From positions 601,960 through 665,959 of the forward strand of contig CAVQLU010000007.1 in assembly GCA_963713435.1 (NCBI GenBank): a stretch of 64,000 nt of DNA. The letters are read 5' to 3'. The DNA comes from an uncultured Actinomycetes bacterium. Its GTDB lineage: Bacteria > Actinomycetota > Thermoleophilia > Gaiellales > JALYLC01. Shown here in pieces: positions 36,741 through 64,000 of this stretch. Every line of letters starts with the position of its first letter. Position 1 is the stretch's first letter. Made by a program: the position numbers and the translations under genes. Below the pieces are notes generated by a model that had not been told where the DNA came from, ran no database searches, and saw only the letters and a list, made by a program, of their open reading frames with translations.

Positions 36741-36839
36741 CCGCCCCGGGTCCTGCGACCGCAGGTTCGCGGCTTTCCCGCTCGCCGGATACGAGCCCAC
36801 CCCGATGAGCGGACGGCGCCTGCGAGGCAGGCTGCAGTC

Positions 36840-37319
36840 GTGTTAGGCGACCTGACGCCCGAGGAGATCGAACGCTTGCTGCGCAGCGAGGCGATCGGGC
36901 GAATCGGCTGCTACGGGTTCGGGCGCCCCTACGTCGTCCCCGTCACCTACGCCTATGACGGCGTTGCCGTCTACTGCCACTCGCGCGAGGGCCTCAAGCT
37001 GCGCATGATGAGGAACCACCCGACCGTCTGCTTCGAAGTCGACCGCGTGGACGGCGTGTCGGACTGGCAGTCCGTGATCGCGACCGGGAGATTCTCCGAG
37101 CTCGAGGCGATGGAGGCCGAGCTCGCGATGCAGTTGCTCGGGCGGCGCCTCGCCCCACTCGTCCCGAGCGCCACGAGCCGGCCGGACAGCCGCATCCACT
37201 CCTCGGGCCACCCGTGGTCGGTCTTCCGCATCCTGCTGGCGGAACGAACGGGCCGCTTCGAGCGGCCGGACTCGCGAGACGAGGAGATCCGACGTGGCGT
37301 TGAAGCACCCGAAATCTGA
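36840..37319 (+). CDS. Pyridoxamine 5'-phosphate oxidase family (flavin/F420-binding split-barrel) protein.
   Basis: This is an intact 159-aa ORF with LTPEEIERLLRSEAIGRIGC...PYVVPVTYAYDG...VYCHS. Confidence 0.7.
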   Translation: MLGDLTPEEIERLLRSEAIGRIGCYGFGRPYVVPVTYAYDGVAVYCHSREGLKLRMMRNHPTVCFEVDRVDGVSDWQSVIATGRFSELEAMEAELAMQLLGRRLAPLVPSATSRPDSRIHSSGHPWSVFRILLAERTGRFERPDSRDEEIRRGVEAPEI

Positions 37320-37554
37320 ACGGACCTCGAGACAGGATCTGGCACCGTCGCCGATCTTCGGCCTCGAGGGCATGCGCATCCCGCGCCGCACGTTGCGGCA
37401 GGGACCGATTCCGCCGGACGTTGCCTATCGGGTGATCCACGACGAGCTGATGCTGGACGGTAACGCTCGCCTCAACGTTGCGACCTTCGTGCGCCGAGGA
37501 GCAGGGCTTCCACCACTGAAGGCCGCACATTCGGCGGCAACCACTGCGGCGTGA
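37294..37554 (+). pseudogene. Remnant of a glutamate decarboxylase gene; only about 50 N-terminal codons of homology remain.
   Basis: Positions 37339-37491 encode ...MRIPRRTLRQGPIPPDVAYRVIHDELMLDGNARLNVATFV, which matches the GAD N-terminus (..IHDELxLDGNxRxNLATFV). Homology stops abruptly after ATFV, and the PLP domain is absent. Confidence 0.7.
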
Positions 37555-37612
37555 CGACAGCCGGCGCGTGGCTGAGCCCACTTCCCGATCGGCGCCGAGG
37601 CTCGCCAAGAGA

Positions 37613-37640
37613 CGGCCGCCCCGGTGCCCCGGGGCGGCCG
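37613..37640. terminator. Perfect 12-bp GC stem / 4-nt loop hairpin between convergent genes.
   Basis: CGGCCGCCCCGG-tgcc-CCGGGGCGGCCG. Confidence 0.6.
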
Positions 37641-37653
37641 ATCTACCAGGACC

Positions 37654-38100
37654 TCAGGCCCCCGCGGCAGCCGGGACGGCTGCCTTGCGGACGATCGTGA
37701 CCGGCACCGGCGACTGCCGGATGAGCGCGTGGGAGACGCTCCCGAGCATCACGCCGGCGATTGCGCCATGCCCGCGCGAGCCGACGACCAGCAGGTCGAC
37801 GCCGAGCTCGTGCACAGCGGACACGATGTTGTCCACCACAGGGCCGCGAGCCGTGTGGGGCGTCGCCTCCACCCCGGCTTCCCTCGCACGCTCCGCGGCG
37901 GCCGCTGCGATGCGCTCGGCGCCATGCTCCTCATCGACTTCGAGGACGGCAGGACTGGGTCCGGTGTGGCCCACCGGCAATGGCGGCCGTACCGCAACCA
38001 CCTGCAGCGACGCGCCCAGCTCGCGGGCCAGTTCGATGGCGACCTCGAGCGCCTGCTCTGCAGATTCGCTGCCGTCGGTGGCGATCATGATGTTCTTCAT
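37654..38100 (-). CDS. Universal stress protein (UspA family).
   Basis: This is an intact 148-aa ORF with MKNIMIATDGSESA and VVGSRGHGAIAGVMLGSVSHALIRQSPVPV. Confidence 0.9.
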   Translation of the reverse strand: MKNIMIATDGSESAEQALEVAIELARELGASLQVVAVRPPLPVGHTGPSPAVLEVDEEHGAERIAAAAAERAREAGVEATPHTARGPVVDNIVSAVHELGVDLLVVGSRGHGAIAGVMLGSVSHALIRQSPVPVTIVRKAAVPAAAGA

Positions 38101-38120
38101 GACATCTCCTCTCGGTGGCG

Positions 38121-38142: not shown

Positions 38143-38191
38143 CTCCTGCCGAGCATCGCGCGATCCGGCCGCAGCGGCATCGGGGAGATCG

Positions 38192-38217
38192 GCGGAAACC
38201 GCATTCGGCTTTCCCGC
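38192..38217. promoter_or_regulatory. Imperfect palindrome GCGGAAACCGCATTCGGCTTTCCCGC, a candidate operator about 105 bp upstream of the USP start.
   Basis: Both halves match a recurring CGG(G)AAA(N)CCGC half-site seen upstream of other operons in the 36.8-60 kb region. Confidence 0.4.
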
Positions 38218-38235
38218 ACTTCCCGGACCGGGCCG

Positions 38236-40900
38236 CTACCAGGTCTTGAGGCGCGCCGTGCCGCCGCCGCGACGCACGCGGATGCGGCGATCGATCGCGA
38301 CGCACCCGGTGCTCGTGGCGAGAACCGGATTGAGATCGAGCTCGCAGACTTCGGGCAGGTCGAGCGCCAGAGCCGAGAGACGATGGAGAAGATCTGCCAG
38401 CGCTGCCGCGTCGAGCGGAGCCTTGCCACGGAAGCCGGCGACGAGCCGTCCGACGGCACCACCGGTCACGAGCTCGTCGGCATCGACGTCCGTCAGCGGC
38501 GCAATGCCGATCGCGACGGCCGAGACGAGCTCGGCGAAGATGCCGCCGAGACCGAGGGCCACGAGCGGACCGAAGACGGGATCGTGGACGACGCCCGCGA
38601 TCAACTCGGTGCCCTCGAGCATCGGCTGCACGAGCACGCTTCCACCGATACGCGTGGCGGCAGCTCGCACGGCGGCCGCGTCACGGAGATCGAGTGCCAC
38701 GCCACCGGTCTCGGTCTTGTGTGCACCTGCGACCGCCGACTTGACCACGACCGCCCCGCCCAAGGATTCGGCTGCGAGCACCGCGTCGCGCGGTCCTTCT
38801 GCGAGTACCTCGGAGGCGAGCGGGATGCCGTAGGCCTCGAGCAGTCTCCTGCTCTGCCGGACATCGAGCCACGCCTCATCTGTGGCGCGGAGCGCCGTCA
38901 CGACGATGGCGCGAGCGGCCGCGCGGTCGACTCCGGTCAGTGTCGGTACGACACCTTCGCGCCGCCGCAGCCAGGCGGTCCTCTTCGCAGCTACGCCGAG
39001 CGCGGCTGCGGCACTCTCGGGAGAGGCGAACGTCGAGGCATTGACGAGCGGCTCATAGGCATCCGAGCCGGCATCCGCGAGCAGCACTGCGACCACGGGC
39101 TTCGTTCGTCCGGCCACGCCGGCAGCGCGGTCGATCACGTGTGCGACGTCCGTCGCGGTGGCGAGCACCGGACGTACGAACAGGATGCAGACGGCATCGA
39201 AGGCGGCATCCGCGAGGACGAGCGGCAACACGGCCTCGAAGGTCTCCGCGGTCGCCGAGCCAAGCAGATCGATGGGATTGGCGCGGCTGCTCTCGGCCGG
39301 CAAGACCGCCCTCAGCGCCTCGGCCGTCGCACGCGAGGGCGCGGGCAGCACCAGGCCCTGGCCTGCGCATGCGTCGGCAAAGAGGATGCCGAGGCCGCCG
39401 GCATTCGTCACGACGGCGACATTGGGGCCGAGCGGGAGCGGTTGCGACGAGAGCAGGGCGGCGGCGTCGAGGAATTCCGAAAGCGTCTTGACGCGGAGGA
39501 CGCCGGCCTGATGGAAGAGCGCGTCGACGGCCGCGTCGGAGCTCGCGAGCGCCGCCGTGTGGGAGGCGGCTGCACGTGCCCCTGCGGCGGTCGCGCCGCC
39601 TTTGAGCGCCAGCACGGGCTTCCTCCGCGCCACCCGGCGGGCGACGCGCCCGAAGCGGAGAGGATTGCCGAAGCTCTCGAGATACAACGCCACGACCGCG
39701 GTGGCCCCATCGTCCTCCCAGTACTCCAACAGGTCATTGGAGCTCACGTCGGCCTTGTTGCCGAGAGACACGAAATCCGAGAGACCGAGTCCGCGCGCAC
39801 GGGCCTGCTCCACGACGGCGAGGCCGAGCGCCCCGCTCTGGGAGGCGAATCCCACATCGCCGGGCGGAAGCGGGCCGGCGGCGAACGTGGCGTTGAGCTG
39901 GTGCGCGGATGAAGCGACACCGAGGCAGTTCGGGCCGATGAGGCGCCCGCCGTGAGCCCGCACGGCGTCCATCAGCGCCTTCTGTCGAGCGGCGCCCTCG
40001 GGTCCCACCTCGGCGAAGCCGGCGGAGATGACGCAGACAGAGCGAACGCCCGCCGCGAGCGCGTCATGCGCGGCGGCGAGCACCCCGTCGGCCGGCACGC
40101 AGATGAGCGCGAGATCGACCCGCGGACTCGCATCCGCGAGAGTGGTCGCTCCCGGCACTCCCCCCACGGCCTCCCCGCGCAGGTTGACCGGAACGACGGG
40201 TCCGGGAAAGTGCCCTGCGAGCACGTTCCTGAAGAGCTCGCCTCCGATCGTGCCTCGGCGCGCCGACGCGCCATACACGGCGATCCCCGCGGGCGCGAGG
40301 AATGCACGAAGGGAAGCTGCGACACCGACGTGATCGCGATCGTCAACCCGTTCGACGTAGTCACGCGTCGGCTCGATCGACATCGTCGCCTCGATCACCC
40401 CGCGAGTCGCCCGCTGTTCCACGGAGAAGCCCGAGCCTGCCACCACTCCGAGCATCTGACGGTTGCCGTGCAGGATCTCGAAAACGAGTCGCTGGATCCC
40501 TGCTGCGGCAGCGCGCCCGGCGAGTTGCTCGAGGAGCCGTGTCCCGACCCCGATGCCCTGCATCTCGTCGGAGACGGCGAATGCCACCTCGGCAGCACGT
40601 GGCATCGCGCAAGCGGTCGAAGCTCGCGAGAGCCACCACGCGTTCGTCACCGCCCTCGCCGAGCACGCCGATCAGCGCCCCGCGGGAACTCCAGTCGGGT
40701 TCGAGAAATGGCTCGATCAGGCTTGCTCGGGCCTGCACGGTCGCGTGAAAGCGCTGGGACATGCTGTGTGGCGAGAGCGCCGCGAGGAATGCCGTCAGCG
40801 CGTCGCGATCGGAACGGCACGGCTCCCGCAGGCGAAGCGTCCGGCCATCGCGCAGGATCACGTCGGCAACGACGCGATTCGAGCGTTCAGCAGTAGACAC
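38236..40900 (-). pseudogene. Pat-like protein: an N-terminal GNAT acetyltransferase fused to an NDP-forming acyl-CoA synthetase-like region (CoA-binding + ATP-grasp). One frame switch lies near 40590-40600.
   Basis: The N-terminus VSTAERSNRVVADVILRDGRTLRLREP... comes from ORF 40361..40900. AEVAFAVSDEMQGIGVGTRLLEQL (GNAT motif A), GIAVYGAS, IGPNCLG and FVSLGNKAD then follow in ORF 38236..40650. Confidence 0.8.
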
Positions 40901-41073
40901 AGGACCAGCCGTGCGCGGCGACGCCGATGAGCGTCCCCGCCTTGGCGCATGTGCCTAGATCCTCCCGGCTGCCTCTCATATGTCGAGGATGCCGTGGCAG
41001 AGGCCGGATGCCATCAGTGCCTGCACGCGTCGAGACTACGGGTGTCCCGCACTGCTGTATCGTCGGCGGCGGC

Positions 41074-41691
41074 GTGATCAAGGTCATCCTCGTCGACGAC
41101 CACCAACTCGTCCGCAGCGGCGTTCGTCGAGTGCTGGAGGCGACCGAGCGCTTCGACATCGTCGGCGAGGCGTCCGGCGTCCGTGAGGCGCTCGACCGTG
41201 CACGGGTCCTGCGCCCTGATGTGGTTGTGCTCGACCTGGGGCTGCGCGACGGTTCCGGACTCGATGCGATCGCGACGTTGCGCGAGGGTGGCGCACGCGT
41301 TGTGATCCTGTCGATGCAGGACGAGCCTGCCTACGCGCGCAAGGCCTTCGAGCTCGGTGCACAGGGCTATGTCATCAAAGACGCCGCCGACGAGGAGCTG
41401 GCGGGGGCCATCGACGCGGTACTCGCCGATCGCATCTATGTGCACCCGGCGCTGGCCGCCCGCCTGGTGATGAACGAGCCCGAGGACGATCTGACCGAGC
41501 GCGAGCGGCAGATTCTGCGCCTGATCGCGCTCGGCTACACGAACCAGGAAATCGCTGGGCAGCTGTATCTGAGCGTCCGGACGATCGAAGCTCATCGCCG
41601 GCACATCCTCGACAAGCTCCGGCTCTCCACGCGAGCCGACCTTGTCCGCTACGCGCTCGAGCACCGCATCGTCGAGCTCGCATCACCCTGA
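41074..41691 (+). CDS. NarL/LuxR-family response regulator (DevR/DosR-like).
   Basis: VILVDDHQLVR, DVVVLDLGL (phospho-acceptor Asp), VVILSMQDE and GYVIKD are present. The C-terminal HTH is LTERERQILRLIALGYTNQEIAGQLYLSVRTIEAHR. I choose the GTG start at 41074. Confidence 0.85.
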   Translation: MIKVILVDDHQLVRSGVRRVLEATERFDIVGEASGVREALDRARVLRPDVVVLDLGLRDGSGLDAIATLREGGARVVILSMQDEPAYARKAFELGAQGYVIKDAADEELAGAIDAVLADRIYVHPALAARLVMNEPEDDLTERERQILRLIALGYTNQEIAGQLYLSVRTIEAHRRHILDKLRLSTRADLVRYALEHRIVELASP

Positions 41692-41761
41692 GCCGAACAC
41701 ATCGCCGAGGCGGCAGCAGAGTGTGCGCAGGCAGCAGGCGTCACGACGACGCCTTCGGCTT

Positions 41762-41785
41762 CGGGAAAACCGCAGAGAGGTTTCG
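41762..41785 (+). promoter_or_regulatory. CGGGAAAACCGCAGAGAGGTTTCG, a candidate operator about 100 bp upstream of the USP/ATPase/xfp operon.
   Basis: It shares a half-site with 38192-38217, 53693-53708 and 60039-60053. Confidence 0.35.
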
Positions 41786-41873
41786 ATGTCCTCCCCGATG
41801 TTGGCCAAGCCATCGCTCAGGGATGCTCTCGGCATACCCGAGTCGAGCTCGGGACATTCGAGAGGAAGACGTC

Positions 41874-42347
41874 ATGAAGAAGATCATGGTTGCCACCGAC
41901 GGCAGCGAATCCGCCGCCGCTGCGGAGGATGCAGCGATCGAGCTCGCGCAGCAGATGGGAGCGAAGCTTCACGTGCTCGCCGTGCGTCCGCCGGTCGTAC
42001 ACGGGCGAGCAGGCTCGGGCCCGGCCATGACCGAGATCGAGGAATTGCACGGCTCCGACCACATCGCCGAGGAAGCGGCTCGACGCGCCCGCGCAAGCGG
42101 CGTGGAGGCAGTGCCGCACGCCAGTCATGGATCGACGGCAGAGGGCATCGTCCCGGCCACGGTGGCAGAGCGCATCGTCCAGGTGGCGACCGAGCTCGGA
42201 GTTGAGCTGATCGTGGTCGGGTCGCGCGGAATGGGCGCCATCCACGGCGCGCTCGTCGGCAGCGTTTCCCACGCCCTCGTGAGCCGTTCGCCGGTTCCGG
42301 TCATGATCGTGCGTCACACGGCCGTTCCGGCTGCCGTCCAGTCGTGA
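41874..42347 (+). CDS. Universal stress protein (UspA family).
   Basis: GAGAGGAAG lies upstream of the ATG. MKKIMVATDGSESA and VVGSRGMGAIHGALVGSVSHALVSRSPVPV are present. Confidence 0.9.
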   Translation: MKKIMVATDGSESAAAAEDAAIELAQQMGAKLHVLAVRPPVVHGRAGSGPAMTEIEELHGSDHIAEEAARRARASGVEAVPHASHGSTAEGIVPATVAERIVQVATELGVELIVVGSRGMGAIHGALVGSVSHALVSRSPVPVMIVRHTAVPAAVQS

Positions 42348-42360: not shown

Positions 42361-45075
42361 GTGGCCGGTTCCGGCATGTTGTCGCCTCCGGCCTCGGGTC
42401 GTCCGGTAACGCCATCCCGTGGGGCGACGGAGATCGCGGCGGCACCTGGCGGGCTGGACGCCGCAACCGCGGCACACCTGCCGATCCCGGAAGTTCTTTC
42501 CCTGCTCGCGAGCAGCGGCCATGGCCTGAGCGACGCAGAAGCCGCCGTGAGGCTCCGCAGCGTCGGGCGGAACGCGCTCGCCGTGCGGCGAGTCTCGGCC
42601 ATCGCCGTGTTCATGCGCCAGGTGCGGAACCCGTTGCTCCTGCTGCTCCTGGCCGCGGCGGCGGTCTCGGGCCTCACGGGCGACCCCACGGACGCCGCGA
42701 TCATCGCCGCGATCGTGGTGCTGAGCGTCGGCCTGAGCTTCTTCAACGAGTACCGAGCCGCGAACGCCGTCGCCGCGCTGCATCGCGACCTGCATCACAT
42801 GGCGCTCGTGTGGCGCGGGGGCGCACAGATCTCGATCGACGTGACCGATCTCGTGCCGGGCGACATCGTCGCGCTCCGCGTCGGCGACATCGTTCCTGCA
42901 GACCTGCGCTTGCTCGACGTGACGCAGCTCGAATGCGACGAGGCAGTGCTCACGGGTGAGTCGCTCCCGGTCGAGAAGACGACCGCGGCCTCGGCAGGCG
43001 ACTCGCCGCTGGATCTGCCGTCGTGCGCGTTCATGGGAACGGTCGTGCACCAGGGCGCGGGACGCGGCGTCGTCGTCTCGACGGGCAAGGCGACCGCCTT
43101 CGGCGCGATTGCCGCAGGGCTCTCCGAACGGCAGGCCGAGACGGCGTTCCAGGTTGGCCTGCGCGACTTCTCGAGCCTGCTCGTGAAGGTCGCCGGCGTT
43201 CTCTGCGTGTCGATCTTCATCATCAACGTCGCGCTCGCGCGACCGCTGGTCGAAGCGCTGCTGTTCTCGCTCGCGATCGCAATCGGCATCACCCCCCAGC
43301 TGCTGCCGGCCATCGTCTCGGTCAGCCTCGCGAGCGGGTCGCGCCGGCTGGCGCGCAAGCGCGTGCTCGTGAAGCGCCTCGTCACGATCGAGGATCTCGG
43401 CAACATCGAGATCCTCTTCACCGACAAGACCGGAACCCTGACCGAGGGCGCAATCACGTTCCGCGAGGCGCTCGATTGCGCGGGGGCTGCGAGCGCGAGC
43501 ACGCTCGCGTACGGCCTGCTCTGCAACGAGACGACGATGACCGATGCCGGCCCCGTCGGCGGCAATGCGCTCGATCTCGCGCTCGTCTCGGCGCCGGAGG
43601 CCGCCTCCCCGCTGGTCGCGGCCGGCGCGAGTGCCTGTCAGCGCCTGGGCCTCCTGCCATTCGACCACGAGCGTCAGCTCGCCTCCGTCGTCGTCCGCTC
43701 GGCGGGAGGCGTCACTCTGGTCACCAAGGGCGCTCCCGAGGCGGTGCTGGCGCGCTGTGCCGATGTGCCGGCGGCCGCCCACCGCGTGCTCGAGCAGCTC
43801 TTCGCCGACGGCGCGCGCGTGGTCGCCGTGGCGACGCGTCCGGCGCCTGGGCTCGGAGCACCGGCGCCGGAGGATGAACGCGATCTGCACCTCGAAGGGT
43901 TTCTCAGCTTCGTCGATCGCCCGAAGCCCGATGCCGGCCAAGCGGTCGGCGAGCTCGCGAGCCTCGGCATTGCAGTCAAGATCATCACCGGGGACAACGG
44001 CACCGTGGCCGGCAAGGTCTGCCGCGACATCGGCATCGCGGTCGACGGCACCCTGACAGGAGGCGAGGTCGATCACCTGAGCGACGACGAGCTTGCCGCG
44101 GCGATCCCGTCGACGACGATCTTCGCGCGTGTCGGGCCCGATCAGAAGTCGCGGCTGATCAGGATCGCGCGGCGCACGGGCGCCGACGTCGCCTTCCTCG
44201 GAGATGGAGTCAACGACGCCGTTGCTCTGCACGCCGCAGACGTCGGCATCTCGGTCGACTCGGCGACCGAGGTCGCGAAGGATGCGGCCGACATCGTGCT
44301 GCTCGACAAGGACCTCGGCGTGCTGGCCGACGGCGTGCGCGAAGGGCGGCGCATCTTCGCCAATACCCTCAAGTACGTCCTCATGGCGACGTCGTCGAAC
44401 TTCGGCAACATGTTCAGCGCAGCGGGCGCGTCGCTCTTTCTCTCGTTCCTGCCGATGCTCCCGTCGCAGATCCTGCTCAACAACCTGCTCTACGACGTCG
44501 GTCAGATGGCGATCCCGAGCGACCGGGTCGACCCCGAGACCGTTACGCGCCCAGCGGCCTGGGACATCGGGTTCGTGCGCAAGTTCATGATGGTCTTCGG
44601 GCCCGTCAGCTCGATCTTCGATTTCGCGACGTTCTTCGTGATGCTCGTGATCCTGAACGCCGGCCACAGCGAGTTCCGGAGCGGCTGGTTCGTGGAGTCG
44701 CTGGCGACGCAGACGCTCGTGATCTTCGTCATCCGCACCCGGCGTGTTCCGTTCCTGCGCAGCCGTCCGAGCCGCCTGATGATCATCCTTCCGATCAGCT
44801 GCGCGACGATCGGCGCCCTCCTGCCCTTCACGCCGATCGCCTCTGCGCTCGGCTTCGCCGCGCTCCCGCTCGCCTTCTTCCTGATCCTGCTCGGCATGAT
44901 CGCCACCTATCTCGTGCTCGTCGAACTCGTCAAGGCGCGCTTCTACGCTGCGCACGAACGGCCGCGGCGGCAGCGCCCGACCAGTGAGCAGAAACGGCAC
45001 CGTCACATCCACCGCCGCGCGCGGCGCTTCACACATCACGCGTCCTTCGCACCGGCACTGAGGAGTCAGCCATGA
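42361..45075 (+). CDS. Cation-transporting P-type ATPase, MgtA-like.
   Basis: This is an intact 904-aa ORF with TGESLPV, DKTGTLT, TGDN and [10 protein letters not shown]. About 10 TM segments are visible. Confidence 0.85.
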
Positions 45076-52170: not shown

Positions 52171-52237
52171 GCGTGCGCCCCGATGGTCGCCGACAGCGAC
52201 GTTTCTACGGTGCTGGAAACACGAGGAAGGTACGCTT

Positions 52238-53680: not shown

Positions 53681-53795
53681 GCCCCACTCCACCGCGGAAA
53701 AGCCGCACGACGCGCGCGGGGCACCGCCGATGCGGGGGGCGCGTCCACCGGCGAAGCTCGTTCCAGCAAGCCACGTCAACGAAGGAGGGGTCGTC

Positions 53796-54152
53796 ATGAA
53801 ACTCAGTCCGAAAGACAGCACCGTCGCCGCACTCGCCGTGCTCATCGTCGGCGTCTTCGTCGTCGCCTACGCCAGCTGGAACGTCCCGCTCATCGGCGAC
53901 AGCAACCGCTGGGCGGCGGTCGTCATCATCGCTCTAGGCCTGCTCGCCGGCTACCTCGCGTCCCCCGGTTCGGAGGCCCGTTCGTATCTCCTCGCGGGCC
54001 TCGTGATCGTGGCGTTCCTGTTCGCGGTGATCGCCCTTGCGTCCGCCTCGCTGACCGCTCTGGCGCTCCTCGTCGTCGCGCTCCTCGCTCTCATCGTCGC
54101 GTACACGACGCGGCACGCGGTGCACGACGGCGAACGGCATCTCGCGACATGA
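53796..54152 (+). CDS. Small integral membrane protein of unknown function (about 4 TM).
   Basis: GAAGGAGGGG lies upstream of the ATG. The 118-aa ORF is hydrophobic. Confidence 0.6.
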   Translation: MKLSPKDSTVAALAVLIVGVFVVAYASWNVPLIGDSNRWAAVVIIALGLLAGYLASPGSEARSYLLAGLVIVAFLFAVIALASASLTALALLVVALLALIVAYTTRHAVHDGERHLAT

Positions 54153-55165: not shown

Positions 55166-55621
55166 CTACTCGGCCGACGCGCGCGGGCGTACAGACCGCG
55201 AGGCGAACCAGCCGAGCACAAGCGCCGGTGCAACAACGAACGTTGCGACGAGGATGAGTTGCGGCGTTCCGCGCCACCCCAACGTGACAGTCTCGATGAC
55301 ACCCCACGCGGCCAGGACGACGGCCATGGCGCCCGCCGCGAGCCCGGCATATCGCGGGGCAAAAAGCGTTACAGCGGCCGCCGCGAGCATGCCTCCCCCG
55401 ATCACGAACAGCAGAAAGAATCCGGGAACCGTGTAATCGGGAAAGACACTTCCCTCGAGCCATGCTTGCTTCGCTCCCAACCCCTCCGCGTCGTTGAGCA
55501 AGCCGTAGCCGCCGAAGATCGCGCCGAGGCCCACGACCAGCTCGATTGCAGCGATCGTGCAGCGAATTCTGCGGGGCGGCGGGGCGGCGTTTCGTGGGAT
55601 GGCGTGTGCGGCGGCGTTCAT
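55166..55621 (-). CDS. Membrane protein of unknown function (4 TM).
   Basis: AGGAGGG lies upstream of the ATG at 55621. The 151-aa ORF is hydrophobic and is probably co-transcribed with the ADH. Confidence 0.55.
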   Translation of the reverse strand: MNAAAHAIPRNAAPPPRRIRCTIAAIELVVGLGAIFGGYGLLNDAEGLGAKQAWLEGSVFPDYTVPGFFLLFVIGGGMLAAAAVTLFAPRYAGLAAGAMAVVLAAWGVIETVTLGWRGTPQLILVATFVVAPALVLGWFASRSVRPRASAE

Positions 55622-55812
55622 GGATTCCCTCCTGTCAATGCAGAGGAGAATCCCGCTCCGGGAACCCGGTCTCATCAGGGGAGCCGCGGAAGGCGACCGC
55701 GTAGTTTCCCGTCGCTCTCCGCGGGCCAACGCGGATGAGAGCGGCGCGCGCGCTGCTGATAGTTGTGCTGCGGCCGATGGCGGTCGCGACCCAGCGAAAG
55801 GAGACGCGCGCC

Positions 55813-57291
55813 ATGTCCATTTCCATGCCGGCCACGACTGCGCCGGCAGCCAGTGCGACCGAAACTCCGGCCCGGCCAAAGCTCAAGCGCTCGCTCGGCC
55901 TGTCGATGGCCACCGCGCTCGTGATCGGGAACATGGTCGGATCGGGAGTCTTCGGGCTGCCGTCGTCTCTTGCGGCCGTGGGACCGATCTCGCTGCTGGC
56001 CTGGGGCTTCACCGGCATCGGAGCGCTCCTGCTGGCGCTCGTCTTCGCCAATCTCGGTCGAGCCTATCCGCAGACCGGCGGACCCTACGCCTTCACGCGG
56101 CGCGCGTTCGGCGACTTCGCGGGCTTCTGGACGGCCTGGGGCTACTGGATCGCCGCCTGGGCGGGGAACGCCGCAATCGCAGTCATCTTCGTCAGCTACG
56201 GATCCGTCTTCTGGTCGAGTCTCGCAACCAACAACGTCCTCGCATTCGCAGTCGGGCTCTCCGTGATCTGGCTGCTCACACTCGTGAACGTCGCGGGCGT
56301 ACGCCAGTCGGGGCTGGTCCAGCTCGTGACGACGATCCTCAAGTTCGTGCCGCTGCTACTGATCGGCGTGATCGGGCTCTTCTACATGAACCGCGGCAAT
56401 TTCACGCCGTTCGACCCGAATCACGTCTCGCTCGTCGGTCACTGGCATGCGATCTCGTTCGCGGCGACGCTCACTCTGTGGGCGTTCCTCGGTCTCGAGT
56501 CGGCCACGGTGCCGGCTGAGGAAGTCAAGGACGCGGAGCGCACGATCCCGCGCGCCACCATGATCGGCACGCTCGCCACGACCGGCCTGTACGTGATTGC
56601 CACCGTCGCGATCATGGGCATCCTGCCCGCGGCCACGCTGGCGAAGTCGAACGCTCCGTTCGCCGACGCGGCCCAGTCGATCTTCGGCTCCTCCATCCTC
56701 GGCATGTCGCCTGCCAAGATCGTCGCGGCCATTGCGATGATCTCGACGTTCGGCGCGCTCAACGGCTGGATCCTGATTCAGGGCCGCGTGCCGCTGGCGG
56801 CCGCTCAGGACGGGCTCTTCCCGCGTCAGTTCGCGCAGGTCAGCGGCTCGCGCAAGACGCCCGTCGTCGGCCTCGTCGCATCGTCGGTCCTGCTGAGCAT
56901 CTTGCTCGGCATGAACTACCAGTCGTCGCTGACGGACACGTTCACGAAGATCATCATCCTCGCGACGCTCACGACGCTCGTGCCATACGCCTTCGCGGCG
57001 GCCGCTCAGCTGATGCTGATGTTCCGCGAGCCCGAGCGCTTCAGCGGCCGGCGCCTCGCGCTCGACGCGACGATCGCCGTGCTCGCCTTCGCCTACTCCT
57101 TCTGGATGATCTATGGCGCCGGACAGGAGTACATCGCGCAGGGCTTCCTCCTGCTGATGGCCGGCATCCCCGTGTACGTCTACATCAAGTGGCACCAGGC
57201 GAGGGCCGAGAAGGCCGGGATCGCCGTGGTCGCCAACCCCGAGCTCACGAGCAACGGCAGCGACCGGCCGCTCGTGAAGGCGGGGATCTAG
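55813..57291 (+). CDS. arcD: APC-family amino-acid permease, arginine/ornithine antiporter-like.
   Basis: AAAGGAG lies upstream of the ATG. The 492-aa ORF has about 12 TM segments and the motif [13 protein letters not shown]. It lies directly upstream of arcA. Confidence 0.8.
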
Positions 57292-57293: not shown

Positions 57294-58547
57294 ATGTCCA
57301 CCCGTACTCGCCAATCGGTGGCCGCCCGCGAGGCGGCCACCGAGAGCGTCTTCGGCGTCCACTCGGAGGCAGGGGTCCTGCACACGGTGCTCGTGCACCG
57401 GCCCGGGCTCGAGCTCGAACGCCTCACGCCGCGCAACAAGGATGACCTGCTCTTCGACGACGTCATCTGGGTCAAGCGCGCCCGGCAGGAGCACGACGCG
57501 TTTGCCGATGCGCTCGCCGACCGCGGCGTTGAGGTTCTCGAGGTACGGCACCTTCTCAGCGAGACGCTCGACCAGGCCGTGGCGCGCACCGATGTGATCG
57601 GCCGCACCATCAGCGCGGCAGGGCTCGGCCCGCGCCTCGGCCCCGCACTCGCGGAGTGGTTCCATGATCTGCCCTCCAGCGAACTGGCCGACCGGCTCAT
57701 CGGCGGCGTCGCCTACGACGAGCTGCCGTTTCCCGACACATCTCTGAGCGCGCTCGCCAGGCGCGGAGACTTCGTCCTCACGCCGCTCCCGAACCAGCTC
57801 TTCACGCGTGACACATCGGCCTGGGTCTACGGGGGCGTCTGCGTCAACCACATGGCGAAGCGCGCCCGCGTGCGTGAGGCGGTGCACATGAGCGCCATCT
57901 ACCGCCATCACCCGCGCTTTGCCGGAGGCGAGTTCTCGTACTGGAGCGAAGGGCATGCCGACGACCCGTCGCTCGAGGGCGGCGACGTGCTCGTCATCGG
58001 CAACGGCTGCGTGCTCGTCGGCATGGGCGAACGCACGCGACCGGCCGGCGTCGAGATGCTGGCGGATCGCCTCTTCGCCGCCGGCGCCGCGCACCTCGTG
58101 ATCGCGCTCGACCTTCCAGAGCGCCGCTCCGCCATGCACCTCGACACGGTCATGACGATGGTCGACGAGGACGCCTTCACGATCTACCCGGATGTCCGCG
58201 CAGGCCTGACCGCTTACGAGCTGCGGCCAGGGACGCACGGAGCCGTGGCCGAACGCGCCAATGACGCTCTTGCGAGCATCGCCGCCGCGCTCGACGTGCC
58301 GAAGTTGCGGCTCTTCGAGACCGGCGGCGACCGCTTCGAGGCCGAGCGCGAGCAGTGGGACGACGGCAACAACGTGCTCGCACTGGCACCGGGCGTCGTC
58401 GTCGCCTACGAGCGCAACGTCGCCACCAACACCCTGCTCCGCCGCAATGGCATCGAGGTCATCACCATCGCCGGCTTCGAGCTCGGACGCGGGCGCGGCG
58501 GTCCGCGCTGCATGTCCTGCCCGATCCTTCGCGATCCCGTCCGATGA
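57294..58547 (+). CDS. arcA: Arginine deiminase.
   Basis: [36 protein letters not shown] and the catalytic-Cys context [10 protein letters not shown] are present. Confidence 0.92.
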
Positions 58548-58570
58548 CCGTCGAGAGGAGGGACAGCACG

Positions 58571-59578
58571 ATGAGCACCGTGAGCAGCCTACGAGGACGA
58601 AACTTCCTGACACTCGCAGAGTTCTCCGGCGACGAGCTCACCTATCTACTCGATCTCGCCGCCGATCTGAAGAGCGCGAAGCGACAGCACTGCGAGGAGA
58701 AACAACTCGCCGGCAAACAGATCGCGCTGATTTTCGAGAAGGACTCCACGCGCACGCGCTGCGCCTTCGAGGTCGCCGCCCACGACCAGGGCGCGCACGT
58801 GACGTACATCGGCCCTGGCGGTTCGCACATGGGACACAAGGAGACCGTCAAGGACACTGCGCGCGTGCTCGGGCGCATGTACGACGCGATCGAGTATCGC
58901 GGCTTCGGAGAGGCCGTCGCCGACGAGCTCGCCGCATGGGCAGGTGTGCCCGTCTACAACGGCCTCACCGACGAGTGGCACCCAACGCAGATCCTCGCCG
59001 ACTTCCTGACGCTGCGCGAGCACATCGACAAGCCGCTCGCGGACATCTCGTTCTGTTACCTGGGCGACGCGCGCTTCAACATGGCCGACTCCTACCTGGT
59101 CGGCGGCGCCAAGCTCGGCATGGACATCCGCATCGCGAGCCCACGACAGCTCTGGCCGGATCAGTCGTACGTCGATCTCGCGCACTCGCTGGCGGAGGAG
59201 TCCGGCGCCACCATCACGATCACGGAGAGCATCGAGGACGCCGTTTGCGGCTGCGACGCGCTCGCCACGGACGTCTGGCTCTCGATGGGCGAGCCCGAGA
59301 ATGCGTGGGCCGAGCGAATCCGTCTCCTCCTGCCCTACCAGGTCAACGCGGGCGTGCTCGAGCTCACCGGCAACCCCGGCGTGAAGTTCCTCCACTGTCT
59401 TCCGGCCTTTCACAGCGCCGACACCGCAGTGGGCGCGACCATCCAGAAGCGCTTCGGCCTCGACGCACTCGAGGTCACCGACGACGTCTTCGAATCGCCT
59501 GCATCAGTCGTCTTCGACGAAGCCGAGAACCGGCTGCACACCGTCAAGGCCGTGCTCGTAGCAACGCTCGGCCGCTAG
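58571..59578 (+). CDS. arcB: Ornithine carbamoyltransferase (catabolic context).
   Basis: [24 protein letters not shown] and the FLHCLPAF (HCLP) motif are present. Confidence 0.92.
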
Positions 59579-59614: not shown

Positions 59615-60010
59615 ATGAAAACCATCGTGGTTGCCACAGACGGCTCCGAGGGGGCAGGCGCCGCGCTCGAACTCGCAGCGCAATTCGCAGGCGAGACCGG
59701 CGCCCAACTCTGCTGCGTGAGCGTGGATGATTCACTCGACACCACCGGCATCGATCCCGCGCCCGAGCAGCGAGCGAGAGCCGGAGCGCAGCTGGCCCGC
59801 GAGTCCGGGCTCAAGGCAGAAGCCGTGGCAAAGGTCGGCCCGGCGGTCGAACGCATCATCGAGGTCGCGGACGAACGCGACGCCGACCTGATCGTCGTCG
59901 GGTCGCGCGGACATGGCGCGATCGTAGGCACGGTTCTCGGCAGCGTCTCCATGGGCCTCGTCCGGACGAGCCGGCGGCCCGTGTTGGTCGTGAAGAGCAG
60001 CGACGTCTGA
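59615..60010 (+). CDS. Universal stress protein (UspA family), short form.
   Basis: AGGAGA lies upstream of the ATG. MKTIVVATDGSEGA and VVGSRGHGAIVGTVLGSVSMGLVRTSRRPV are present. Confidence 0.88.
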   Translation: MKTIVVATDGSEGAGAALELAAQFAGETGAQLCCVSVDDSLDTTGIDPAPEQRARAGAQLARESGLKAEAVAKVGPAVERIIEVADERDADLIVVGSRGHGAIVGTVLGSVSMGLVRTSRRPVLVVKSSDV

Positions 60011-60142
60011 GCTGAGCTGCGTCGCAGCACCCGGCCCTTCGGAAAATCCGCAGACACGGGTGGGCGGCCGCACCGATGAGGTCGGAGCCGGAGCACGCGA
60101 TGCTGGGGGAATGGGCGCAGACACCATCCAGCAGGTCGTTGC

Positions 60143-60556: not shown

Positions 60557-60581
60557 CGACCTGGCAGGCAAGCGGCCGACC

Positions 60582-62360
60582 ATGTGCGCGCCCGACCCGG
60601 TGGTGGCGCCCACGGCGTATACACTCGCTTGCTCAGTGTCTCATTCGCCGCTGGATGAGCCGCGCCTGCGGAGGTTGCTCGACGTTGGCCGTGCTCTTGT
60701 CGCCGAGCTCGACCCCGACTCGGTCCTGCGCACGGTTCTCGACGCCGCGTGCGAGCTCACGGGCGCCCGCTACGCAGCGATCGGCATCCTGACCGCCGAT
60801 CGGATGTCGCTCGAGCGCTTCGTGACCCGCGGCATCGACGCGGAAACCCAGCGCGAGATCGGGGATCTGCCGCGTGGAAGAGGCGTCCTCGGCGTGCTGA
60901 TCGACGATCCGAGACCGCTGCGGCTGGCGGATGTCGGCCAGCATGCGAAGTCCTACGGCTTTCCGATCGGGCATCCGCCCATGAAGAGCTTCCTCGGTGT
61001 CCCGCTGGTGATCCGCGGGGAAGCCTGGGGCAACCTGTACCTCACCGAGAAAGCCGAGGGCGAGTTCGACGAAGCGGACGAGGAAGTGATCCTCGCCCTC
61101 GCCGGCTGGGCTGCGACCGCAATCGAGAATGCACGCCTGCACCGCAGCGAGCGCGCACGCCGCGACGAGTTGGAACGTGCTGTGCGTGGTCTCGAGGCCA
61201 CGACGGAGATCGCCCGCGCGGTTGGCGGCGAGACGCGCCTCGACCGGGTGCTCGAGTTGATCGTCAAGCGCGGCCGTGCGCTGGTCGAGGCTCGTGGCAT
61301 GGTGATCATGCTGGCCGAGGCCGACGACCTCGTCATCACCGCCGTGGCCGGCCAGATCGACGGCGCGCTCGTGGGAACTCGCCTCGCCGTTGCGGATTCG
61401 GCGGGCGGAGCCGTGTTGCGTTCCCGCAAGCCGGAACGGATCACGGACGCCTCGTCGCGGCTGCGGTTCGCCCTCGCCGAGATGGCCGATGCCGAAGCCG
61501 GGCTGATCGTCCCGCTGGTCTTCCACGGCCGGGCGGTCGGCGTGCTCGAGGCGTTCGACCGGCTCAGTGGTGGGCCCGCGTTCTCGAGCGAGGACGAGGC
61601 GCTCATGGGGGCCTTCGCCGCGAGCGCCGCCACGGCGGTCGCCACCGCCCAGAACGTCGCGGCCCAGACCTTGCGACGAAGCATCGACTCTTCCGAGCGA
61701 GAACGCGCTCGCTGGGCGCGCGACCTGCACGATGAGACGCTGCAGGAGCTGAGCGCGCTCAAGATCGCACTCAGTTCCGGCCAGCGCACGCCGGACGCCG
61801 AAGCCCTGCGAGCATCTATCGCCACGGCGATCGAGTACAGCGAGCACGCCATCAGGGGACTGCGGGAGATCATCAGCGACCTGCGCCCGGCCGCTCTCGA
61901 TGCGCTCGGCACCCAGGCTGCCGTCGAGACGCTCGTCGAGCGCGCCCGCTCGCGCTCCGGCCTTGCGATCGAATGCACGATCGAGCTGGAGTACGAGTCC
62001 GGGCGAGCCGCCACGCGGCATACCGAGGCGCTCGAGGCCGGGATCTACCGAGTCACTCAGGAAGCCATCAGCAACGCCGTCAAGCACGCTCACGCGTCGC
62101 ACCTGGCGATCAGCCTCAGCGAGGATGGCGAGGTCGTCGCGCTCTCCGTCGAGGACGACGGCTGCGGGTTTGACATCGCCGAACAGGATGCTGCGGGCTT
62201 CGGGCTGGTCGGCATGCGGGAGCGAGTCGAGTTGCTCGGGGGCACGCTCCAGGTGACGTCGCGCTTGCAGAGCGGAACGCGGATCGACGTCGCAGTGCCG
62301 GTGCGGCGGCGGAATGCGGAGGCAGCCGAAGCCCCGTCTTCGGAGCGCGCCATCAGTTAA
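60582..62360 (+). CDS. GAF-GAF-HisKA_3-HATPase sensor histidine kinase (DevS/DosT-like).
   Basis: GAF-A block: HAKSYGFPIGHPPMKSFLGVPL..GNLYLTEK..F. A second GAF domain follows. The H-box is WARDLHDETLQEL, and the ATPase blocks are QEAISNAVKHA and DDGCGF...GFGLVGMRERV. Confidence 0.88.
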   Translation: MCAPDPVVAPTAYTLACSVSHSPLDEPRLRRLLDVGRALVAELDPDSVLRTVLDAACELTGARYAAIGILTADRMSLERFVTRGIDAETQREIGDLPRGRGVLGVLIDDPRPLRLADVGQHAKSYGFPIGHPPMKSFLGVPLVIRGEAWGNLYLTEKAEGEFDEADEEVILALAGWAATAIENARLHRSERARRDELERAVRGLEATTEIARAVGGETRLDRVLELIVKRGRALVEARGMVIMLAEADDLVITAVAGQIDGALVGTRLAVADSAGGAVLRSRKPERITDASSRLRFALAEMADAEAGLIVPLVFHGRAVGVLEAFDRLSGGPAFSSEDEALMGAFAASAATAVATAQNVAAQTLRRSIDSSERERARWARDLHDETLQELSALKIALSSGQRTPDAEALRASIATAIEYSEHAIRGLREIISDLRPAALDALGTQAAVETLVERARSRSGLAIECTIELEYESGRAATRHTEALEAGIYRVTQEAISNAVKHAHASHLAISLSEDGEVVALSVEDDGCGFDIAEQDAAGFGLVGMRERVELLGGTLQVTSRLQSGTRIDVAVPVRRRNAEAAEAPSSERAIS

Positions 62361-62365
62361 CGGAG

Positions 62366-62389
62366 CACGGGGGGCGCGCGCCCGCCGTG
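62366..62389. terminator. GC-rich hairpin between the convergent kinase and cydB genes.
   Basis: CACGGGGGGCGC/GCGCCCGCCGTG is self-complementary with one mismatch. Confidence 0.5.
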
Positions 62390-62458
62390 ACTCGCCTACG
62401 GCGAGGAGCAGCAGGTCCGCCGCCGGTCGCAGGCCGCAGAGCCGGCGTCTTCCGGCGA

Positions 62459-63548
62459 TCACTCGCCGGTCGTGGCACTCGGAGCGTCCGGTGCGACCGG
62501 AGAGCAGGTCGATGGGGCTCTTGAGCGGAGCGAGATCGTCGCGGCCGATCCGGTGACGGAAGACGTGGTACGTCCAGCCCTGATACACCAGGACGACCGG
62601 CGTCAGGGCGAGTGCCACGATCGTCATCACGACGAGCGTGTAGTGGGTGGAACTCGTCGACCAGATCGTCAGGCTGTAGGCCTTCCTGGTCGAGGACACG
62701 AGCACCCGCGGGTACAGATTGAGGAAGATCGTGAGTGTCACGAGCGCGATCGTGAGGGCCGTCGCGGTGAAGGCGAGGCCGTCCTGGGCGCGCCGCACGA
62801 GGAACGGCACCGCGATCGCCAGGCCGAGGGCCGTCAGCGGAATCACGCCGGGAACGAGCCCCTTGTCATGGGCAGACTCAGCGTTCAGATAGGTCCAGAA
62901 GAGAAAGACGAACACAAGGGCTGCGGCCACGACCGAGAGCCGCCGGGCCGCTCGGCGCGAACGCTCCAGCATCTCGTCCTTCGTCTTGAGCGAGAGATAG
63001 ACGGCGCCGTGCAGCGTGAAGACCGCGAGGGTCATGAGGCCCCCGAGGAGCGCGTACGGGTTGAGCAGCGTCAGCAGCGTGCCGGTGTACTCCCCGTGCG
63101 CGTCGATCGGCACGCCTTGCAGCATGTTCGCGAACGCCACACCCCAGAGCAGCGCAGGAAGAGCGGAGCCGAAGAAGATCGCGCGATCCCACCACGCCCG
63201 CCAGCGCGCCGAATCACGCTTGCCGCGGTACTCGAAGGCGACACCGCGCACGATGAGCGCGACGAGGATCAGGAACAGCGCGAGGTAGAACCCCGAGAAC
63301 AACGTGGCGTACCAGCCGGGGAAGGCAGCGAAGGTCGCGCCGCCGGCCGTGAGGAGCCACACCTCGTTGCCGTCCCAGACCGGCCCGATCGTGTTGATCA
63401 TCACCCGCCTGTCGGTGTCGTCCTCGGACAGAAACGGCAGCAGCGTTCCGACGCCGAAATCGAATCCCTCGAGCACGAAGTAGCCGATCCAGAGGATGGC
63501 GATCAACGCGAACCACAGGACTTCCAGGTGCCAGTAGCCGGTTGGCAT
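62459..63548 (-). pseudogene. cydB: Cytochrome bd ubiquinol/menaquinol oxidase subunit II. There is no in-frame stop; the nearest plausible stop needs a frame switch near 62490.
   Basis: The first roughly 340 aa of ORF 60633..63548 read MPTGYWHLEVLWFALIAILWIGYFVLEGFDFGVG...GPVWDGNEVWLL...VYQGWTYHVFRHRI. The frame then runs on for about 1.8 kb antisense to the kinase. Confidence 0.8.
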
Positions 63549-63558
63549 CGTCGCCGCC

Positions 63559-64000
63559 TCAGTACGCCATGGAGAAGTCGTGGGCGGGCTCGGACGACGC
63601 CGGGTCGTGCGGACCGCCGGGTGCGGGCGGCTCGCTGCGCGCGTAGCGGAACATGAGCCACCCGTCGACGGCGGCCAGCAGGCCGTACAACAAGGTGAAG
63701 CCGGCGAGCGTCAGCCCGACCTCCCAGGCCGACACGCTCGGCGAGACGGCATTCGACGTCTTCAGCAGGCCCTGGACGACCCACGGCTGACGGCCCATCT
63801 CCGTGAAGATCCAGCCGCTCGCGTTCGCGAGCAGCGGCAACGCGATCGCGGCCGTCGCGACGCGCAGGTAGCGCCGCGAGGTCGCGAGGCGCCCGCGCCA
63901 GAGCAGGAGCATGCCGAGGGCCGTGATGGCGACCATCAGGAAGCCGATTCCCGTCATGATCCGGAACGTCCAGTAGGTGACGCCAACGATCGGCGCGTAG
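63559..64000 (-). CDS. cydA: Cytochrome bd oxidase subunit I, C-terminal part; the gene continues beyond the window.
   Basis: The sequence reads ...WIFTEMGRQPWVVQGLLKTSNAVSP...LLYGLLAAVDGWLMFRYA and stops at 63559, 10 nt upstream of the cydB start. Confidence 0.85.
   Translation of the reverse strand, partial: YAPIVGVTYWTFRIMTGIGFLMVAITALGMLLLWRGRLATSRRYLRVATAAIALPLLANASGWIFTEMGRQPWVVQGLLKTSNAVSPSVSAWEVGLTLAGFTLLYGLLAAVDGWLMFRYARSEPPAPGGPHDPASSEPAHDFSMAY

Follow-up and report, generated by a model that had tools for sequence, protein, structure and literature searches.

Regulons of the DosR type are known in Mycobacterium, Rhodococcus, and Streptomyces (PMC5069765, PMC2947987). In Streptomyces coelicolor, the DevSR-like pair OsdK/OsdR (SCO0203/SCO0204) is encoded amid universal stress proteins (USPs), a Zn-dependent alcohol dehydrogenase (ADH), and stress genes, and OsdR autoregulates through a palindrome and binds both AGGGCCGATCGGCCCT and mycobacterial DosR targets (PMC5069765). 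Here we describe a 64,000-nucleotide stretch of contig CAVQLU010000007.1 from an uncultured actinobacterium, hereafter the window. In its last 27 kb, the original prediction had placed a survival island of the hypoxia or dormancy type, with a DevR/DosR-like regulator encoded at 41074 and a DevS/DosT-like kinase at 60582. We found that this block is a real, conserved, and apparently co-regulated island, which appears to be a distant, rewired relative of the dormancy regulon of M. tuberculosis rather than its copy. Our preferred reading, to which we give a probability of roughly 0.55, is that the region, from an actinobacterium of the Thermoleophilia (probably Gaiellales), is a regulon for low-oxygen/redox stress, driven by kinase 60582 acting through regulator 41074.

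The grouping is not due to chance, and two independent grounds carry this statement: synteny and a shared cis-element. The window has a G+C content of ~70% and its raw open reading frame (ORF) lists were noisy, so genes were called by third-position GC (GC3 frame analysis) and checked against Pfam and NCBIfam. All genes named in the original prediction were recovered in place (Table 1), including four of the UspA family (Pfam Usp E-values of 1.5e-21 to 3e-33), and to these we add a Zn-dependent ADH, two small membrane proteins, and a 137-amino-acid (aa) pseudo-receiver. For synteny, the window was compared with loci from relatives, designated by L-numbers, of which L081 and L085 belong to one contig of a close relative. 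The gene order there is nearly the same (regulator 95% and kinase 82% identical). It runs from the PNPOx-like flavoprotein through Usp, the Pat-like gene, regulator, Usp, phosphoketolase (xfp), ABC, P1B ATPase, and Usp to arcC, and onward from the 118-aa membrane protein through ADH, arcD, arcA, arcB, Usp, and a small protein to the kinase and, further on, cydBA. In distant Thermoleophilia, arcA/B/C/D, xfp, Pat-like genes, both ATPase types, the ABC pair, cydAB, and Usp genes are repeatedly found within 10 kb of such kinases. The embedding of the arginine deiminase (ADI) pathway and xfp in the island, a feature the original prediction had singled out, is thereby borne out.

The second ground is a composite promoter element, first spotted by reading the intergenic regions. 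It consists of a palindrome of 15-17 bp, T(G/T)CGG-N5-CCG(C/A)A, whose centre is A/T-rich, and of C(C/G)GATG 19-21 nt further on; the distance of the GATG element is 25 nt to the A-tract and ~21 nt to the right arm. The pattern CATCSG-N18-23-CGGNWWWNCCG was matched five times, where dinucleotide-preserving shuffles gave an expectation of 0.01, and every match lay upstream of an island gene. There was no match to the composite element in the first 36 kb of the window, where the functions encoded (sugar transport, amine oxidase, aromatic catabolism, STAND NTPases) are unrelated, in keeping with the predicted left boundary. We place the start of the island at the 36767 box because the preceding Pyr_redox_2 gene (35544-36740), considered as a regulon member and rejected, has no box upstream and no homology to the box-linked oxidoreductases of relatives. 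Counting variant boxes, about eight transcription units share this promoter architecture: PNPOx; Usp1; the Pat-like gene; Usp2-ATPase-xfp; Usp3-arcC; the 118-aa membrane protein; the membrane protein-ADH unit, divergent from arcD-arcA-arcB-Usp4; and pseudo-receiver-kinase. The variant boxes at 52145 and 55699 share GCGTAG, and the half-box at 55699 is flanked by CTCATC (reverse-complement GATGAG-type) within 55668-55681 on the left and by CGCGGATGAGAG at 55730-55741 on the right.

At the 41036 box, which ends 22 nt before the start codon of regulator 41074, a -10-like hexamer of the TANNNT type, TATCGT (41058-41063), stands 5 nt past the box and 10 nt before the regulator GTG, and this hexamer is kept in relatives. 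This arrangement points to an almost leaderless regulator mRNA with a promoter that overlaps the box, and would leave room for negative autoregulation. An Rfam scan of 34-64 kb matched none of the known RNA families, which means that the conserved leaders belong to no known riboswitch class. Within the arcD leader, the block GATAGTTGTGCTGCGG (55758-55773) is invariant in three genomes and could be either a true -10/discriminator region or a second regulatory site, for example an arginine-responsive one.

Outside the window, the element was sought with a weight matrix built solely from the five window sites. In 567 kb of Thermoleophilia-type loci there were 19 matches, 10 of them with GATG at 19-23 nt (0-1 in shuffles); in loci from other phyla, GATG stood at the right distance in one of 43 matches. 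The element is kept at orthologous promoters in the close relatives L081, L085, L086, L087, and L082-84. Such sites precede PNPOx, Usp1, and Usp2 in L081 (3695, 7194, and 10706), the kinase operon in L085 (9388) and L087 (9381), and the 118-aa protein in L081/L085/L086; orthologues of this protein lie behind the same box in L081, L085, L086, and L082. The cydA promoter in L085 carries the box as well. The variant boxes at 52145 and 55699 are invariant amid diverged flanks, the former in four genomes, and the Pat/regulator control region with the 41036 box is likewise invariant. This box is conserved in L081, and in L082/L084 it precedes a histidine kinase-response regulator (HK-RR) operon. Distant relatives have, among the genes behind the element, arcD, a P1B ATPase gene, tandem Usp genes, an oxidoreductase gene, and a kinase operon. 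One box at L017 9409, flanked by GATG elements, lies between divergently transcribed genes for Usp and an oxidoreductase. Metagenomes were also scanned for the exact pattern, without a negative control and with some redundant contigs; most of the contigs returned came from soil and had 65-76% G+C. The first downstream ORFs there were Zn-ADH (11), a 218-aa membrane protein (6), Usp (3), and 4Fe-4S proteins (3), besides oxidoreductases, FMN reductases, CBS proteins, cytochrome bd subunit I, and a Pat-like gene, and they often begin 32-35 nt past GATG, as PNPOx does in the window. The motif is apparently undescribed: a literature search, which was not exhaustive, found no paper on this box or on such a system in Thermoleophilia.

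The DevS/DosT-like character ascribed to kinase 60582 was upheld. Its domains follow the order GAF/GAF_2 (residues 43-182), GAF_3 (220-354), HisKA_3 (374-439), and HATPase_c (485-575), with no membrane segments called and an H-box His at about residue 383. The GAF-A domain is ~50% identical to that of DosT (2vzw, E=6.8e-43; DevS entries ~E=4e-39) and keeps a proximal His (GHPPM) and a distal Tyr (GNLYLTEK), which we take to be the counterparts of DevS H149/DosT H147 and DevS Y171/DosT Y169. A Gly in this domain aligns with a Gly of DosT at a position where two DevS mutant entries (2y8h/2y79) differ, and which is presumably E87 in DevS. The core is a generic HisKA_3. Judged by sequence, kinase 60582 belongs to the DevS/DosT family, and we infer haem binding and gas sensing by its GAF-A domain. 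Its closest relatives among species-representative genomes (50-66% identity) come from Solirubrobacterales, Capillimicrobium, and other Thermoleophilia metagenome-assembled genomes (MAGs). One Thermoleophilia MAG (CAVXTB010000006.1, L001 + L017) encodes three paralogous DosT-like kinases in ~25 kb, two of the three with adjacent regulators.

Regulator 41074 is the sole DNA-binding protein found in the island. It keeps the phospho-acceptor Asp54 (VLD54 aligned to DevR, BLASTP), and its recognition helix is YLSVRTIEAHRRHILDKL. Its family is found in Thermoleophilia (helix SVRTVE[ST]HRAHI), is encoded beside a DosT-like kinase in several genomes, and adjoins such kinases in relatives that carry the box; homologues of 84-95% identity occur in numerous metagenomes from soil, one of them with the label Gaiellales. 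Together with the relatives of the kinase, these place the window in an uncultured lineage of Thermoleophilia, probably in Gaiellales, and not in Mycobacterium or Streptomyces. In many Solirubrobacterales loci (L007, L010-L014, L022, L034), a convergent gene just behind that of the kinase, often followed by arcC, encodes a second regulator family (helix LSVRA[IV]EVNRAKLLEKL), of which the window has no member.

The predicted separation of kinase and regulator was confirmed: the kinase has no DevR-type regulator beside it, the nearest being 19 kb away, and in the nearest relative the two are likewise separated, by 16 kb. DosT of M. tuberculosis is itself an orphan, and adjacency to a regulator is not strictly defining. 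The original interpretation of this separation as a split DevR/DevS pair did not hold. In L082-84, where the regulator is 90% identical, its gene overlaps the end of another GAF-GAF kinase gene, and the box lies 22 nt before the kinase start, the same place as before the regulator in the window. This operon kinase is only 36% identical to kinase 60582, so the latter is not the ancestral partner of the regulator. In the window and in the nearest relative, the operon partner of the regulator has been lost. Directly upstream of the kinase stands the pseudo-receiver, a NarL-type receiver-like protein that has lost the acidic DD pocket, the Thr/Ser, the Lys, and the phospho-Asp, with Gly in its place; these losses were verified in three aligned orthologues. 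A profile search found it only in the window and the L085-87 clade, and in all four of these genomes the kinase orthologues (74-82% identity) are encoded behind it and never beside a regulator. The island thus comprises an orphan regulator and a kinase with a pseudo-receiver, not one pair pulled apart.

Under our preferred reading, ordered by falling confidence, the roughly eight units would form one regulon, and the palindrome would be the site of a dimeric activator, centred near -41 (class II position) if GATG marks the -10 region. The activator would be regulator 41074, because it is the only DNA-binding protein in the island; its dimer would bind the palindrome and turn the promoters on. 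The soluble haem-GAF kinase would sense O2, NO, or CO like DosT, autophosphorylate on the H-box His, and phosphorylate Asp54 of the regulator when O2 falls or NO/CO appears. Lastly, the pseudo-receiver, whose gene is transcribed together with that of the kinase, probably binds and thereby modulates the kinase, since phosphorylation of the pseudo-receiver is not possible. The kinase operon would be among the targets and provide positive feedback, and binding at the 41036 box may damp the regulator's own promoter. The predicted output comprises substrate-level ATP from carbamoyl phosphate (arginine) and acetyl phosphate (phosphoketolase), NAD+ regeneration via ADH together with the high-affinity oxidase cytochrome bd, and USPs, flavoproteins, ion pumps, and a Pat-type enzyme genetically linked to a USP. 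This output fits survival without respiration.

Several points weigh against this circuit. The low identity of the operon kinase is one, and the conserved neighbour of kinase 60582 is the pseudo-receiver, not regulator 41074. A comparison of DHp helix 1 with receiver alpha-1 was family-typical and not diagnostic of kinase-regulator specificity, and other kinases and regulators may exist in the genome beyond the 64-kb window. No element was found for the ATPase-ABC operon (51876-47479). C(C/G)GATG is unlike TANNNT, the usual actinobacterial -10, and the composite could be an alternative sigma factor promoter. The ADI genes and a glutamate-decarboxylase remnant fit an acid-stress reading, too.

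The pairing points feed the rival that survives best, which we consider possible but tentative: kinase 60582 would work with the pseudo-receiver and an unseen regulator, and 41074 would owe its activation to a different kinase or to acetyl phosphate from phosphoketolase. Both the 36% identity and the consistent presence of a pseudo-receiver where a regulator might adjoin the kinase point this way, and OsdR is phosphorylated by acetyl phosphate in vitro (PMC5069765). However, the kinase operon shares its box with the other units, which argues for the same circuit, and Solirubrobacterales kinases of the same clade adjoin regulators of the 41074 family and helix type. Furthermore, the window holds no other regulator or kinase of these families. 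With some doubt, we also entertain a reciprocal decay that left a hybrid three-part unit of kinase, pseudo-receiver, and orphan regulator with its own promoter code. Here, the DosT-like kinase would have lost its cognate regulator, which would survive only as the unphosphorylatable pseudo-receiver, and a paralogous kinase-regulator operon would have lost its kinase. The remaining kinase would drive the remaining orphan regulator, with the pseudo-receiver as adaptor or brake. The code, TGCGG-N5-CCGCA + CCGATG, would be widespread in uncultured soil Thermoleophilia and govern a fermentative/micro-oxic survival programme of ADI, phosphoketolase, ADH, and cytochrome bd.

It seems unlikely to us that the island is co-regulated by an alternative (ECF/general-stress) sigma factor or a regulator encoded elsewhere, with general stress, energy starvation, or acid as the trigger and the kinase and regulator as mere regulon members. 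Such control would account for C(C/G)GATG being conserved more strongly than a typical -10, and the ADI pathway, the antiporter (best model arginine/agmatine), and glutamate decarboxylase are classical acid-resistance functions; the missing ancestral kinase partner of the regulator also favours it. Against it, the box is dyad-symmetric with both arms conserved, its A/T core is found in either orientation, and it appears to serve divergent promoters at window 55699 and L017 9409. Dyad symmetry and divergent use fit a dimeric DNA-binding protein and not a -35 element, and the ~21 nt from the right arm to CGATG are too long for a -35/-10 pair. The box also co-occurs with the regulator family, and in L082-84 it belongs to the HK-RR operon's control region. 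By inspection, promoters of the sigma-28/WhiG type (TAAA-N15-GCCGATAA), the ECF type, and the SigF type were considered as the principal explanation and rejected, as their spacings misfit and the box is dyad-symmetric; a promoter of this kind is retained only as a rival.

A strictly orthologous DevR/DevS (DosR) regulon whose genes are merely separated is very improbable. It would explain the high similarity of GAF-A to DosT/DevS and the label 'DevS' that automated pipelines give to kinase homologues, and USP-rich content is also found in the DevR/OsdR neighbourhoods of Mycobacterium and Streptomyces (PMC5069765). It is contradicted at the level of regulator and box, and the DevR/DosR-like label given to 41074 is valid only at the family level. 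The regulator is 37% identical to DevR, which ranks below others among its PDB matches (VraR 119 bits, NarL 105, DesR 101.5, DevR 100), and its best NCBIfam model, MctR, is under cut-off. K179, K182, and N183 of DevR, which we take to be base-contacting residues of the recognition helix, are replaced by R, E, and A (LSVRTIEAHRR against LAEKTVKNYVS; DevR sequence verified against 3c3w). With box consensuses from PMC5069765 and PMC2947987, the DosR box GGGACN4GTCCC was under-represented (37 matches against 65 expected). None of these matches, nor any to the wider consensus GGGHCNWWNGDCCC or the OsdR form GGGNCN4GNCCC, was intergenic in the island; the DosR/OsdR consensus counts were 3 against 4.6 expected and 2 against 3.4 expected, and a different palindrome is conserved instead. 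Regulator 41074 is therefore a NarL-family protein and not a DevR orthologue. The parallel originally drawn to the DosR regulon stands for the USP, flavoprotein, and P-type ATPase content and the DosT-like kinase, and fails for the regulator and the box; no nitroreductase, nitrate reductase/narK2, or alpha-crystallin genes were seen in the island. Finally, a chance neighbourhood of unrelated stress and metabolic genes can be dismissed despite the mixed strands and the rearrangements (an inserted ATPase; deleted glutamate decarboxylase, ABC, and ATPase genes), given the L081/L085 synteny, the gene families recurring round the kinase in many Thermoleophilia, and the five motif matches against 0.01.

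Table 1. Genes and promoter elements of the island, in window coordinates.
Feature	Position	Strand	Support or remark
Composite element, box TCGCGGCTTTCCCGCTC then CCGATGAG	36767-36809	+	32 nt upstream of PNPOx-family gene
Pyridox_ox_2 (PNPOx-like) flavoprotein	36840-37319	+	Pfam PF12900, E=1.7e-21
Usp1	37654-38100	-	Pfam Usp, E=3.3e-33
Composite element, Usp1 promoter, GTGCGGGAAAGCCGAAT ...CCCCGATG (minus-strand reading)	38176-38219 (site 38203)	-	
Pat-like gene: N-terminal GNAT + NDP-forming acyl-CoA-synthetase-like domain	38236-40891	-	Pfam, NCBIfam
Box CTACGGGTGTCCCGCAC, GATG on Pat side	41010-41052 (box 41036)	-	Placed to drive Pat-like gene
NarL-family response regulator (REC+GerE), orphan	41074-41691	+	Pfam
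Composite element, CTTCGGGAAAACCGCAG ...CCCCGATG	41759-41802	+	Upstream of Usp2-ATPase-xfp
Usp2	41874-42347	+	Pfam Usp, E=4.3e-27
P-type ATPase, magnesium-translocating (IIIB, MgtA-like)	42361-45075	+	TIGR01524, 731.8 bits, cut-off 610.75
Phosphoketolase (xfp), frameshifted	45072-47463	+	Pfam XFP_N, E=9e-169
ABC-2 type permease	47479-49119	-	Pfam
ABC ATPase	49116-49958	-	Pfam
P1B heavy-metal type P-type ATPase	49951-51876	-	TIGR01525, 483 bits, above cut-off
Variant box CGCGTAGGAATCCGCAA then CCCCGATGG	52145-52189	+	Upstream of Usp3-arcC
Usp3	52238-52744	+	Pfam Usp
arcC, carbamate kinase	52748-53680	+	NF009008, E=3e-106, 355 bits against cut-off 361 (just under)
Composite element, CCGCGGAAAAGCCGCAC ...GCCGATG	53692-53734	+	Upstream of 118-aa protein
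118-aa membrane protein, no known family, conserved	53796-54152	+	
Zn-dependent alcohol dehydrogenase	54156-~55151	-	TIGR02822, 362 bits
151-aa membrane protein preceding ADH	55166-55621	-	
Divergent control region, ADH unit and arcDAB-Usp4	55668-55741		Variant half-box GCGTAGTTTCCCGTCGC at 55699-55715
arcD-like APA-family antiporter	55813-57291	+	
arcA, arginine deiminase	57294-58547	+	NF002381, 539 bits against cut-off 414
arcB, ornithine carbamoyltransferase	58571-59578	+	TIGR00658, 385 bits against cut-off 281
Usp4	59615-60010	+	Pfam Usp
Composite element, CTTCGGAAAATCCGCAG ...CACCGATGAG	60037-60080	+	Upstream of pseudo-receiver + kinase
Pseudo-receiver, REC-like, 137 aa	60143-60556	+	Directly upstream of kinase
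GAF-GAF-HisKA_3-HATPase_c sensor kinase, 592 aa	60582-62360	+	Pfam
cydB	63548 to ~62460	-	Frameshift ~10 codons before stop
cydA, 3' part	63559-64000	-	Cut by window end

Two metabolic claims of the original prediction stand in part. The complete ADI pathway was found as far as arcA, arcB, and arcC are concerned, and the antiporter falls under all equivalog cut-offs: it scores 340 bits with the APA subfamily model TIGR00905 (cut-off 409) and is matched better by the arginine/agmatine model (309 bits) than by the arginine-ornithine model (226 bits). It is assignable only to the basic amino acid/polyamine antiporter subfamily, and its arcD role rests on operon context. Of the two ATP-yielding routes, the genes for both ADI and phosphoketolase are present, and xfp is not an intact ORF as written. 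The Pat-like gene has all of the CoA_binding-Succ_CoA_lig-ATP-grasp_5 and GNAT domains, and it shares one operon with Usp in L082/L083. Sequence cannot tell a catabolic from an anabolic role of arcB, nor acetyltransferase from ADP-forming acetyl-CoA synthetase activity of the Pat-like enzyme.

A single frameshift each was found in xfp, the Pat-like gene, and cydB. In xfp, the reading frame changes between 46424 and 46429 (L081 orthologue intact, 800 aa). In the Pat-like gene, the frameshift lies near 40602/40604 and separates the main ORF (38236-40650) from the N-terminal 96 aa, the first part of GNAT, in another frame (40604-40891; L081 orthologue intact, 886 aa). Because all three orthologues are intact in the close relative (L081/L085), assembly indels are the likeliest cause. 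The cydB frameshift at ~62490 is followed by antisense read-through over the kinase, and the resulting 971-codon ORF (60633-63548) was rejected as a gene overlapping the kinase. Outside the island, partial domain matches and odd fusions were observed at 5120-7378, 7972-8838, 12168-13358, 16310-17419, and 31139-31975 (Cu amine oxidase with short-chain dehydrogenase, the C-terminus only of GH4 and of a TPP enzyme, HpaB without its N-terminal half, and a partial luciferase-like domain), which suggests that the whole contig is rich in indel errors. Contigs of relatives obtained in the same studies have split genes as well.

Recent rearrangements have altered the island. The MgtA-type ATPase gene (42361-45075) is present between Usp2 and xfp only in the window and not at L081 10818-13725. 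It was considered as the relative's cyd-linked ATPase moved, and rejected: at only 35% identity it is a different gene. In the kinase-cydB gap of L085 (11908-18805) there are three MacB-type ABC genes and another cation ATPase, all absent from the window. L081 encodes a full-length glutamate decarboxylase (462 aa) and then a YrhK-like gene, both deleted in the window between PNPOx and Usp1, where 37300-37491 holds an N-terminal remnant of a glutamate-decarboxylase-type PLP enzyme (64 aa, 80% identical). Further upstream, 17435-26167 is a signalling gene cluster unrelated to the island, with a 1190-aa STAND/AAA_16 NTPase, a PLP decarboxylase fused to a cyclic-nucleotide-binding domain (21064-22962), and an adenylate/guanylate cyclase-AAA_16-TPR protein (22949-26167).

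Among soil actinobacteria, the Thermoleophilia (Gaiellales, Solirubrobacterales) belong to the most abundant groups and to those least represented in culture. If our reading is true, it bears on how they survive water-logging and oxygen fluctuation, it provides a predicted regulon with a searchable promoter code that can be read in metagenomes and metatranscriptomes, and, for bacteria that are considered aerobic, it would connect the sensing of oxygen with substrate-level ATP (arginine, phosphoketolase). The DosT-type haem sensor module would be much older and more portable than the DevR regulator or the DosR box, and the island would be a natural case of two-component partner re-assortment with a pseudo-receiver.

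Among known systems, the oxygen-responsive NreB/NreC system of staphylococci shares a NarL-family regulator, which there reacts to oxygen limitation, and the label of regulator 41074 homologues as NreC is an automated (KEGG) one only. NreC binds a GC-rich pentamer palindrome, TAGGG-N4-CCCTA; unlike the island kinase, NreB is a PAS/Fe-S kinase and not a haem-GAF one, and the targets are nitrate and nitrite respiration genes. The arcDABC operon of Pseudomonas aeruginosa, which is anaerobically induced (ANR/ArgR; an FNR-family Fe-S activator with a TTGAT-N4-ATCAA box near -41), likewise uses ADI as an oxygen-independent ATP source, whereas the island arcC stands separately behind a Usp gene and control is apparently exerted via the box of a two-component regulator. 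Streptomyces PatA has a GNAT/acyl-CoA-synthetase-type architecture, and mycobacterial Pat acetylates a USP. The island Pat-like gene resembles these actinobacterial types in its N-terminal GNAT, its NDP-forming acyl-CoA-synthetase-like domain, and its link to a Usp gene; it differs in lacking a cAMP-binding domain, in keeping the SHT motif His of the synthetase-like domain, by which it may have ADP-forming acetyl-CoA synthetase activity, and in being frameshifted in the assembly.

The two closest systems are those of Streptomyces and M. tuberculosis. With OsdK/OsdR, the island shares DevSR-like signalling amid a USP cluster and a Zn-dependent ADH. However, the AGGGCCGATCGGCCCT motif is absent from the island, OsdK and OsdR are adjacent where the island genes are split, and the Streptomyces island centres on nitrate reductase and this one on ADI and xfp. 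With DosS(DevS)/DosT-DosR(DevR) of M. tuberculosis, it has in common a soluble haem-type kinase with tandem GAF domains and a HisKA_3 core, a regulator of the NarL family that carries Asp54, and several USPs, flavoproteins, and a P-type ATPase, controlled by a palindromic activator site that overlaps the -35 position. In contrast, the island box is TGCGG-N5-CCGCA and the DosR box GGGAC-N4-GTCCC; the regulator helix has R/E/A in place of K/K/N; kinase and regulator are not adjacent, and the kinase has a pseudo-receiver partner. The island also adds ADI, phosphoketolase, Zn-ADH, the Pat-like enzyme, and cytochrome bd. The sensor module and the logic are familiar, while regulator specificity, box, wiring, and gene content differ.

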